The translations under genes and the position numbers were made by a program. Below, one piece after another: positions 9,137-9,955 of a DNA stretch of 64,000 nucleotides. Numbering within the stretch: position 1 is the first letter of the stretch; every line of letters starts with the position of its first letter. The stretch is from Gammaproteobacteria bacterium (GTDB taxonomy: Bacteria; Pseudomonadota; Gammaproteobacteria; DASZBR01): the NCBI GenBank assembly GCA_035943935.1, contig DASZBR010000002.1, forward strand, positions 90,868 to 154,867. Direction: 5' to 3'. Under the pieces are notes generated by a model, which was not told the DNA's origin, did not search any database, and saw nothing but the letters and a program-made list of their open reading frames with translations.

Positions 9137-9174
9137 GGTATAATAGGTCTAATTAATTTCAGTAAGGATGTTGT

Positions 9175-9789
9175 ATGAAATATAATCATAACGTTTTTAT
9201 TAATTGCCCATTTGATAAAAAGTATCAGCCGTTTGAAGATGCCATTATCTTTACCATTATGGGTTGTGGTTTTAAAGCGAGAAGTGCAAAGGAATCTTCT
9301 GCTTCGAATAATAGGCTTTATAATATACAAAAAATAATTCAAGAATGTGACTTCGCGGTTCACGATATTTCTCGTACTGAACTTGATAACAAAAATAAAT
9401 TGCCGCGATTTAATATGCCGTTCGAGTTAGGTTTATTTCTAGGTGCAAAATATTTTGGTGGTCAGTTTCATGATGGGAAGTCATGCCTTATTTTTGATAG
9501 GGGGCAATATCGATATGAGAAGTTTATATCGGATATTAAAGGACATGACATTATTAGTCATCGAGATATCCCTCTTAGAGTGGTAGATCCAATTCGTAAT
9601 TGTTTAGCAGAACTAGCAGGTGATCAGAAAATTTTATTGGGTTCGGATATCTGTAGCTTGTATTCTGCATTTTGTAGATGGTTGATAAAAGGCAAAATTA
9701 AGCGTGAGAGCTTATCTTTTGGAAAATTTGCACATATTATTTCAAAGTATTTTGAGTCTATTGGAGGATGCTATGCCATACAAGATTAA
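9175..9789 (+). CDS. TIR-like / nucleoside 2-deoxyribosyltransferase-like (Rossmannoid) domain protein, 204 aa, with Cys-rich C-terminal half
   Basis: N-terminal VFINCPFD...CDFAVHDIS...NMPFELG pattern resembles the NDT/TIR/SLOG superfamily with a candidate catalytic Glu. Inserted between pyk and ridA. Family call is tentative. Confidence 0.45.
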   Translation: MKYNHNVFINCPFDKKYQPFEDAIIFTIMGCGFKARSAKESSASNNRLYNIQKIIQECDFAVHDISRTELDNKNKLPRFNMPFELGLFLGAKYFGGQFHDGKSCLIFDRGQYRYEKFISDIKGHDIISHRDIPLRVVDPIRNCLAELAGDQKILLGSDICSLYSAFCRWLIKGKIKRESLSFGKFAHIISKYFESIGGCYAIQD

Positions 9790-9955
9790 AATTCCCAAGA
9801 TTTTATATCCGAGCGTAATTACTAAGAAAGAGAAAGACGAAGCAAATAAGTTGATTAAAGCGGCGTTTAGAATATGTCCGCCTGAGGAGGCTATAAGGCT
9901 TGTAATTAAAGAATTTAAAAAAGCAAAGCATCACCATGGTCATCAACATCACTAA
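9773..9955 (+). CDS. Small 60-aa protein with His-rich C-terminus (KHHHGHQHH), translationally coupled to the upstream gene
   Basis: ATG 9773 sits 5 nt after GGAGGA and overlaps the stop of the 9175..9789 ORF. The ORF track lists a longer in-frame version from 9704. Confidence 0.4.
   Translation: MPYKIKIPKILYPSVITKKEKDEANKLIKAAFRICPPEEAIRLVIKEFKKAKHHHGHQHH

Follow-up and report, generated by a model that had tools for sequence, protein, structure and literature searches.

A TIR-like protein and its small basic partner inside a glycolytic operon: a putative toxin-antitoxin-like module from a large, unnamed bacterial family

What are two small overlapping genes doing between the genes for two glycolytic enzymes? 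The question is raised by a 64,000 nt stretch of contig DASZBR010000002.1 (here called the window, to whose full length all positions refer unless another locus is named), in which the pair studied here, gene A (204 aa) and gene B (60 aa), separates pyk from ridA and fba. On balance we lean, by no great measure, towards the hypothesis that A and B form a toxin-antitoxin-like two-gene module of the abortive-infection type, belonging to a large family that has no name. We are led to it because A is an enzymatic protein of the TIR/nucleoside 2-deoxyribosyltransferase (NDT) type with strongly conserved putative active-site residues; because it has an obligatory small neighbour, usually upstream and overlapping; because the family is patchy, plasmid-borne and phylum-hopping in its distribution; because the motif of the partner is found joined to immune enzymes, and a canonical TIR domain is found fused to the A domain; and because, in a decaying copy of the module, the enzyme gene broke first. 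As for its position in the operon, the best explanation is that the module is old and non-essential, a passenger transcribed together with pgk-pyk-ridA-fba and without a glycolytic function of its own.

Judged by homology, A and B are real genes and not chance open reading frames (ORFs), A because it has more than 6,150 homologous clusters, and B because it is homologous to small ORFs that adjoin A orthologues. The A clusters, counted at 90% identity in a word-indexed search, are nearly all of 200–215 aa, carry no Pfam domain and are annotated 'hypothetical protein'. When 1.84 billion representatives were searched with a full hidden Markov model, 3,420 clusters (50% identity) passed E ≤1e-3 and 2,481 passed the stricter limit of E ≤1e-10. 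No match to the family reached the significance threshold in Pfam, NCBIfam, PADLOC or PHROGs, a literature search found no paper describing it, and neither the family nor its partner motif seems to have been described before.

The AlphaFold model of A (pLDDT 85.7) consists of a five-stranded alpha/beta core, with strands at residues 6–10, 34–37, 60–64, 103–108 and 126–128 and helices between them, followed by three C-terminal helices; the latter form a family-specific region that is poorly conserved in sequence in an alignment of 38 diverse members. The predicted structure has the flavodoxin-like fold of the TIR superfamily (Pfam clan STIR). When the model was compared with the PDB using Foldseek, the matches (E 3e-4 to 1e-2) were TIR domains (7crc, 7un8 and 8oz6, among them plant RPP1, STING-TIR and SPARTA TIR-APAZ) and NDT/DNPH1 proteins (2a0k and 8pqr). 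Several TIR structures were matched with a Foldseek probability of 1.0 and query-normalized TM values of 0.40–0.52, and the NDT/DNPH1 matches were about as strong (2a0k, E 7e-4). A viral structure library pointed to both families again, a CAP12/Pycsar TIR protein being among the matches. The predicted fold places A in the TIR/NDT superfamily, as had been proposed in a preliminary description of this DNA. The near equality of the two sets of matches would also suit a different history, in which A is a housekeeping nucleotide-salvage or sanitizing hydrolase (NDT, DNPH1 or LOG-like) recruited into the pgk-pyk-fba operon, with B as a regulatory or chaperone subunit. We consider this improbable, for reasons that lie mainly in the distribution and history of the genes, discussed below, but also in the sequence: no NDT Pfam model was matched at E ≤1 by any of the 38 A family members.

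At the sequence level the only repeatable signal of the A family among curated families is PF10137, the TIR domain of CAP12/Pycsar effectors, which gives a sub-threshold match in 30 of the 38 members (best E 0.003). The match spans residues ~43–92 of A, including the helix that bears the conserved glutamate, and scores 15 bits against a cut-off of 24.7. PADLOC TIR effector models match A weakly (E 0.002). Among the same 38 proteins PF01582, PF13676, PF08937 and PF13271 found no match, and nor did the DUF4062 model at E ≤1. Profile searches of A in NCBIfam and PHROGs returned nothing, and the family profile produced only noise against the sequences of solved structures (ribosomal L18 and histone, E >0.6). 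No housekeeping family laid claim to the protein.

Twenty-nine positions are invariant in the 38-member alignment. The protein of the window, which begins MKYNHNVFINCPFD and continues through HDIS to PRFNMPFELG, displays the main blocks of this set: NCPFD (residues 10–14), E40, R47, H63-D64, PRFNMPxELG (77–86), C104 and SDIxGxD..H (119–129). E84 lies in the model at the start of helix 81–94, the third helix, after strand 60–64, the third strand. From this topology we infer that it occupies the position of the TIR catalytic glutamate. The preliminary description had put a catalytic glutamate in the ELG loop; its invariance holds throughout the alignment, while its catalytic role is that of a candidate proposed from predicted topology. 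Two other features singled out there, a Cys-rich C-terminal half of A and a His-rich tail on B, turned out to be lineage noise. The cysteines of the window protein are at 104, 143, 160, 167 and 199, and only C104 is conserved in the family. The relatives of B end in GHH, KHQH or RHN, or without any histidine.

The distribution of the A family is patchy across phyla, with members in Poribacteria, Verrucomicrobiota, Planctomycetota, Acidobacteriota, Gemmatimonadota, Nitrospirota, Alpha- and Gammaproteobacteria and others. Most are in free-living groups (for example Poribacteria, Acidobacteriota, Planctomycetota and rhizobia), in which the arrangement with the partner gene is the same. Seventeen plasmids, all alphaproteobacterial, carry the gene, for example beside MobF, Fic or a transposase. 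Several proteins (P0135, P0196 and P0243) have a canonical TIR_2 domain joined to the N-terminal side of the A domain. Patchy and plasmid-borne occurrence, together with links to TIR_2 and to a CBASS cyclase (see below), agrees with the earlier suggestion of a defence or toxin-immunity module, on grounds of context; the same features count against a salvage enzyme. A subset of the family (P0128, P0149, P0152, P0166, P0181 and P0188) has an additional conserved C-terminal domain of ~100 residues (...FVILxKxxxxLSYxQ...LEYQEGxLDEHY...W) with no Pfam match, and two of these six also bear N-terminal extensions of ~110 residues.

Members of the A family almost always have an adjacent partner gene on the same strand. 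We inspected 80 loci from species-representative genomes and derived motif statistics from 92 non-redundant loci, using a profile seeded solely from 11 downstream partners of Poribacteria, then iterated and searched against 1.03 Mb in six frames. The same-strand ORF adjoining A carries a recurrent motif of ~30 residues with the consensus RERTVKYPPKRGTLTRSQIRRAVKKV and the pattern R-x-R-x-V-K-x-P-P-K-R-G-x-L-T-x-x-x-I-R-R-A-V-x-K-V. The motif ORF is directly adjacent to A in 48 of the 92 loci (29 upstream, 19 downstream), and elsewhere in the 1.03 Mb the motif was matched only three times, in each case by an extra paralogue near A in Poribacteria. In most of the remaining loci a variant, such as DGVxILxPKxKPTHFTxREIxxTIxKV, was judged by eye to be present at the C-terminal end of the upstream ORF. 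Spacing between A and its partner is –13 to +60 nt in most loci, and upstream partners commonly overlap the start of A by 1–13 nt. Most partners have 40–110 aa, are very basic (isoelectric point, pI, 9.9–12) and comprise the motif and low-complexity sequence; they match no helix-turn-helix, ribbon-helix-helix or AbrB model. No conserved third gene was found among 142 neighbours of the pair, the outer genes being heterogeneous.

In some partners the motif is joined to a larger domain: DUF2188 (also the PADLOC single-gene candidate PDC-S16), a GIY-YIG-like segment, TPR repeats or unknown domains of 400–600 aa. In two Poribacteria it lies within residues 1–45 of a genuine CBASS oligonucleotide cyclase (PDLC00770, E 1e-124), and in both of these loci A is the only plausible effector nearby. 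Such carriers suggest that A might be the effector, or the signal-making TIR protein, of a CBASS- or Thoeris-like defence system, and its partner an adaptor or sensor rather than an inhibitor; the motif would then tether a sensing or signal-generating protein to A, and the B of the window would be a minimal adaptor. The association of the motif with DUF2188, which one study lists among putative Thoeris effectors (10.64898/2025.12.03.692087) and another connects with defence operons (10.1101/2022.04.27.489752), is in keeping with this, as are the several motif-bearing paralogues of some Poribacteria loci. For the window, and for the family in general, we nevertheless think this account rather doubtful, given that most partners, B included, are 40–80 aa of motif and basic low-complexity sequence with no sensor or enzymatic domain, that a cyclase is present in only 2 of the 92 loci, and that cyclase, SAVED, STING, SLOG and Macro domains were not found in A or B. 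The toxin-antitoxin and adaptor readings need not be mutually exclusive across the family. A more general proposal, which we advance tentatively, is that the partner motif is a portable plug that controls an unrecognized family of TIR-like enzymes and couples to the enzyme any protein that carries it, whether DUF2188, a CBASS cyclase, a GIY-YIG-like nuclease or no more than a basic peptide. In most bacteria one and the same effector would then work in a toxin-antitoxin pair, and in others in a signalling defence system.

Several observations on the partners stand apart from these arguments. Two Poribacteria loci (L054, at 6597–6887, 7090–7374 and 8501–8947, and L041, at 1701–1892 and 6620–8584 of those loci) have several paralogous motif ORFs with a single A nearby and resemble cassette arrays. 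A second short motif, (S/T)GRF(V/I), recurs on either side of the main motif in many partners (L028, L031, L060, L066, L042, L044, L058, L067, L087 and L179), sometimes accompanied by a ...RKEAERRKxTAVVETI tail. In L033 (6627–6950) and similar loci (L018, L029 and L032) the main motif is followed by YKYHLKQGDKIIRxGITNDLxRREKEHQR, which resembles a GIY-YIG nuclease core and has weak database matches (PHROG endonuclease, E 8e-4; Pfam MUG113, E 0.1).

How does B, which begins MPYKIKIPK and ends KHHHGHQHH, relate to these partners? The nearest homologues of A (47–70% identity), in related metagenomic genomes, also lie between pyk and fba, with an ORF of 50–53 aa just upstream of A, and B is homologous to these small ORFs although it is itself downstream of A. 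Against a profile of four of them B scored 24.3 bits, a value reached by none of 2,000 shuffled sequences (maximum 12.5). One of the syntenic partners, that of locus L098 (MKTMRKIASLNIKGTFTKREIDKAIKEV...), scored 24 bits against the general motif profile (0 of 1,000 shuffles), while the other partners of the clade scored weakly (p ~0.009 for that of L006, L006u). An hhalign comparison of the small proteins of the clade with the motif alignment gave P 0.007 in matching register, and the HMMER alignment of L006u agreed with it. The chain from B to the clade partners, to the L098 partner and to the general motif, together with position, is why we regard B as a probable diverged member of the partner family in an unusual downstream location; in this sense the idea that the small gene is a genuine cognate partner has held up. 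A homologue search with B found only B itself, because the method needs shared five-residue words, and homology was established instead by synteny and local profiles. Searches of Pfam, PADLOC, NCBIfam and PHROGs matched no domain in B. Its single-sequence model (pLDDT 70) is disordered at 1–17, has helices at 18–31 and 37–53 and ends in a disordered His tail, a prediction compatible with an N-capped helix preceded by an extended segment.

The history of the insertion site can be followed in related genomes. The nearest matches to the window pyk carry the label Legionellales or Legionellaceae (68–70% identity), from which we take the host to be an uncultured Legionellales-like gammaproteobacterium. 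Host-acting TIR proteins are known from bacteria, TcpB/BtpA and TcpC among them, and a Legionellales-like organism, with large Pfam-less and possibly effector-like proteins encoded just downstream of the operon, invites the thought that A is a virulence effector that cuts host NAD+ or blocks TIR signalling, with B as its chaperone or immunity protein. This seems to us very improbable: the family, with its partner gene arranged in the same way, occurs mostly in free-living phyla, there is no evident secretion signal or elaboration specific to the lineage, and the nearest relatives have lost the module or have it in decayed form.

In Legionellales-like genomes whose pyk is 52–60% identical to that of the window, pyk is followed directly by fba (gaps of 62–141 nt). 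Closer relatives have the module in various forms (identities are to the window pyk). The order is pyk-small gene-A-fba in L098 (74%) and L005 (72%), and pyk-small gene-A, then fba, in L006 (78%); L097, where pyk is not on the contig, has small gene-A-fba, and L093, with a partial pyk only, has a 95 aa ORF-small gene-A-crcB-fba. The window has pyk-A-B-ridA-fba. Its closest relative, L180 (88%), has pyk-ridA-broken A-intact small ORF-fba: what remains of A is its N-terminal half, 107 codons long and 82% identical, after which a frameshift or deletion interrupts the gene, while the small ORF (53 aa) is intact and scores 15.8 bits against the clade profile, which is the order of loss expected if A is the harmful component. 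In the next closest, L181 (85%), pyk and fba are 13 nt apart with no insert. That A is broken in the closest relative, and the whole module missing from the next closest, shows the module to be dispensable in this lineage.

All of 100 neighbour-joining bootstraps unite the A proteins of L005, L006, L093, L097 and the window in one clade. The A protein of L098, 47% identical to that of the window, is placed as sister to the clade with low support (47 of 100); an independent insertion in L098, considered in view of this low identity, is a reading against which the weakly supported sister grouping may speak. In syntenic relatives identity to the window is 72–78% for pyk, 88–90% for fba and 56–58% for A. 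The G+C content of third codon positions (GC3) of A, 0.26, resembles that of its neighbours (0.25–0.35). The recent acquisition suggested in the preliminary description is not supported, because A forms a single clade at the pyk-fba site, in genomes whose pyk is 72–78% identical, and has a neighbour-like GC3; nor is synteny identical across the order, pyk being directly followed by fba both at 52–60% and at 85% identity. The simplest account is one old insertion and vertical descent, with divergence faster than that of the flanking enzymes, and a flip of gene order in the sub-lineage of the window and L180; ridA and crcB would have come to the same spot independently, and some lineages would recently have lost the module or let it decay. 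ridA is 3′ of the module in the window, 5′ of it in L180, and absent from L005, L006, L097, L098 and L181. A salvage or sanitizing enzyme might seem to be favoured here by tight operon packing, native-like GC3 and retention at the same site across the clade, but a pseudogene in the closest relative, absence from the next closest and the direct pyk-fba junction outside the clade speak against it, and a conserved housekeeping component at this site is not supported. Both the housekeeping and the virulence explanations accord poorly with the distribution. The pyk-fba spacer itself behaves as a repeated landing site, holding the A/B module, ridA, crcB or the 95-aa ORF in different genomes (window, 9137–10381; L180, 5434–6503; L181, 5434–5448, empty; L093, 164–1993).

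Our working hypothesis for the mechanism is as follows. A would most likely be an N-glycosidase of the TIR/NDT superfamily that cleaves NAD+ or a nucleotide by means of the invariant Glu84, NAD+ being the leading candidate by analogy with PF10137 and DUF4062 enzymes. The small basic B may dock on A through the extended segment and N-capped amphipathic helix of the partner motif, and so hold it inactive. Were B lost, titrated or displaced, through stress, phage infection or loss of the locus, A would become active, deplete its substrate and halt growth. The analysis itself shows the class of fold (as predicted), the invariant residues, the pairing with a cognate partner and its motif, the distribution and the way the module decays; the substrate, toxicity, binding, inhibition and trigger in this scheme are those we infer from that evidence.

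Several points weigh against the toxin-antitoxin hypothesis. No TIR or NDT model is matched by the A family at its curated threshold, and the equivalence of Glu84 is based on secondary-structure position in a predicted model. B alone is not significant against the general partner-motif profile (p ~0.15). Partners have no recognized DNA-binding fold, unlike most type II antitoxins, and those with large domains (cyclase, TPR, unknown 400–600 aa) would be better explained as adaptors or sensors. The loss of the putative toxin first is drawn from a single locus, and the survival of an intact module at a single chromosomal site in at least six lineages could point to a domesticated function. No A homologues were found in a phage collection, and enrichment beside known defence genes was not demonstrated.

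The features of the locus are collected in Table 1. As previously described, two overlapping genes lie between pyk and ridA-fba; the reading frames share 17 nt, and the GGAGGA ribosome-binding site proposed for the small gene is present. The start given for the module, 9137, is the first base after the pyk stop and not a gene start. Spacers are of 38 nt between pyk and A and 16 nt between B and ridA. A consensus scan found no promoter or terminator separating A-B from the pgk-pyk-ridA-fba transcription unit, and an Rfam scan of the window found only three tRNAs, clustered on the minus strand at 52574–52911, distant from the module. Directly 5′ of pgk (4755–6550) are genes for an ABC-transporter permease and a periplasmic binding protein, of the spermidine/putrescine type according to the Pfam families of relatives and with synteny kept in L180 and L181; their longest ORFs overlap by 73 nt, and the second gene probably starts at a later codon. 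On the plus strand 3′ of fba are ORFs at 11456–11980 (174 aa) and 12107–14227 (706 aa), both without a Pfam match. In relatives the slot between fba and the heptosyltransferase genes is filled by differing proteins without annotation (L005, 394 aa; L180, 514 aa; L181, 531 aa). The proteins of this slot could be lineage-specific and effector-like.

Table 1. Features of the A-B module and of its operon (window coordinates)
Feature	Position	Strand	Description	Basis
pgk	6543–7703		upstream flank region	
pyk	7700–9136	+	upstream flank of insertion site	
AAGGA, Shine-Dalgarno-like, gene A	9164–9168	+	6 nt 5′ of ATG	sequence read directly
Gene A	9175–9789	+	204 aa; TIR/NDT-superfamily protein of unnamed family (predicted fold)	ORF list, >6,150 homologous clusters, AlphaFold, Foldseek
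TIR-like five-stranded alpha/beta core of A	9175–9564	+	residues 1–130 (predicted)	AlphaFold model, conserved columns
Signature loop and helix start, PRFNMPFELG	9403–9432	+	residues 77–86	invariant in 38 diverse members
Candidate catalytic Glu84	9424–9426	+	codon within PRFNMPFELG	
C-terminal three-helix region of A	9571–9759	+	residues ~133–195; predicted helices 133–147, 156–172, 182–195	
GGAGGA ribosome-binding site, gene B	9763–9768	+	within 3′ end of A, 4 nt 5′ of B ATG	sequence read directly
Gene B	9773–9955	+	60 aa, basic (pI 9.9); probable diverged partner-motif member, downstream of A	ORF list, profile homology
B residues 6–33 (KIPKILYPSVITKKEKDEANKLIKAAFR)	9788–9871	+	aligned with family-wide motif	hhalign, HMMER alignment of L006u
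His-rich tail of B, KHHHGHQHH	9926–9952	+	lineage-specific, predicted disordered	
ridA	9972–10358	+	separate passenger at site	PF01042, E 7e-21
fba	10382–11446	+	downstream flank of insertion site	

TIR-type enzymes that cleave NAD+ or nucleotides are central to immunity in bacteria, plants and animals, and new TIR-like families such as DUF4062 are still emerging and have proved to be active defence enzymes. The type of system proposed here, a TIR-like effector with a small controlling partner, is familiar, while the family and the motif appear to be unmodelled in four curated libraries. The short conserved partner motif, expected to bind the enzyme, provides a testable handle. If the toxin-antitoxin or abortive-infection hypothesis is true, the module would represent a new effector-partner pairing in which one docking peptide could connect one effector to different upstream proteins; if the motif is a portable plug, it would amount to a new modular regulation of TIR-type effectors and a new defence or toxin-antitoxin family of several thousand members. 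The window also illustrates how such a module lives, rearranges and dies inside a glycolytic operon, a single pyk-fba site presenting it in four states: intact, with order flipped, decayed and absent.

It is instructive to compare the module with systems already known. Thoeris pairs ThsB, a TIR protein, with ThsA-type effectors, and A, too, is a separate TIR-type protein, ~200 aa long, with a second gene next to it; some partners of A carry DUF2188, which has been proposed as a Thoeris effector. However, A matches no ThsB or TIR_2 model, most partners, B included, have no effector or ligand-binding domain, and the window does not show the pairing of a TIR protein with a signal-binding effector, B having no domain match. 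The CAP12/Pycsar TIR proteins (PF10137), NAD+-depleting effectors of CBASS and Pycsar, resemble A in predicted fold and, weakly, in sequence, and two loci of the A family do pair A with a CBASS cyclase. A differs from them in scoring below the 24.7-bit gathering threshold, in having no SAVED, STING or cyclic-nucleotide (cNMP)-binding sensor, and in its usual partner, a small motif protein and not a cyclase; the module in the window has no CD-NTase beside the presumed effector. With NDT and DNPH1 (Pfam clan Nribosyltransf) A shares Foldseek matches of similar strength and a glutamate in x-E-L-G at a helix start, yet it matches no NDT model, has its own signature motifs (NCPFD, HD and PRFNMP) and occurs in a mobile, conflict-type context rather than one of salvage.

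The TIR-like NADases of the DUF4062 group (Swarozyc and Evangelion) deplete NAD+ and cause abortive infection (10.64898/2026.05.01.722283; 10.64898/2026.06.25.731849). Like them, the A family long went unrecognized as TIR-like, lies between TIR and NDT in sequence space, and has a conserved glutamate (catalytic in DUF4062, a candidate in A) and a helical extension after the core. DUF4062 systems are single genes with auxiliary domains, whereas the A family has a separate partner carrying a putative docking motif, an arrangement that recalls type II toxin-antitoxin systems. RES-Xre is an example of such a system with an NAD+-targeting toxin, RES being ADP-ribosyltransferase (ART)-like, whereas the predicted fold of A is TIR-like. 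The partner of A differs from type II antitoxins in matching no helix-turn-helix or ribbon-helix-helix model and in the occurrence of its motif on large multidomain proteins, and in the window and Poribacteria the order of the two genes is reversed. In other respects the two are alike: A and B are co-oriented and adjacent, the small gene overlapping the larger enzymatic one; the family is patchy, mobile (plasmids included) and dispensable; and in one relative the enzymatic gene has decayed while the small gene has been kept.

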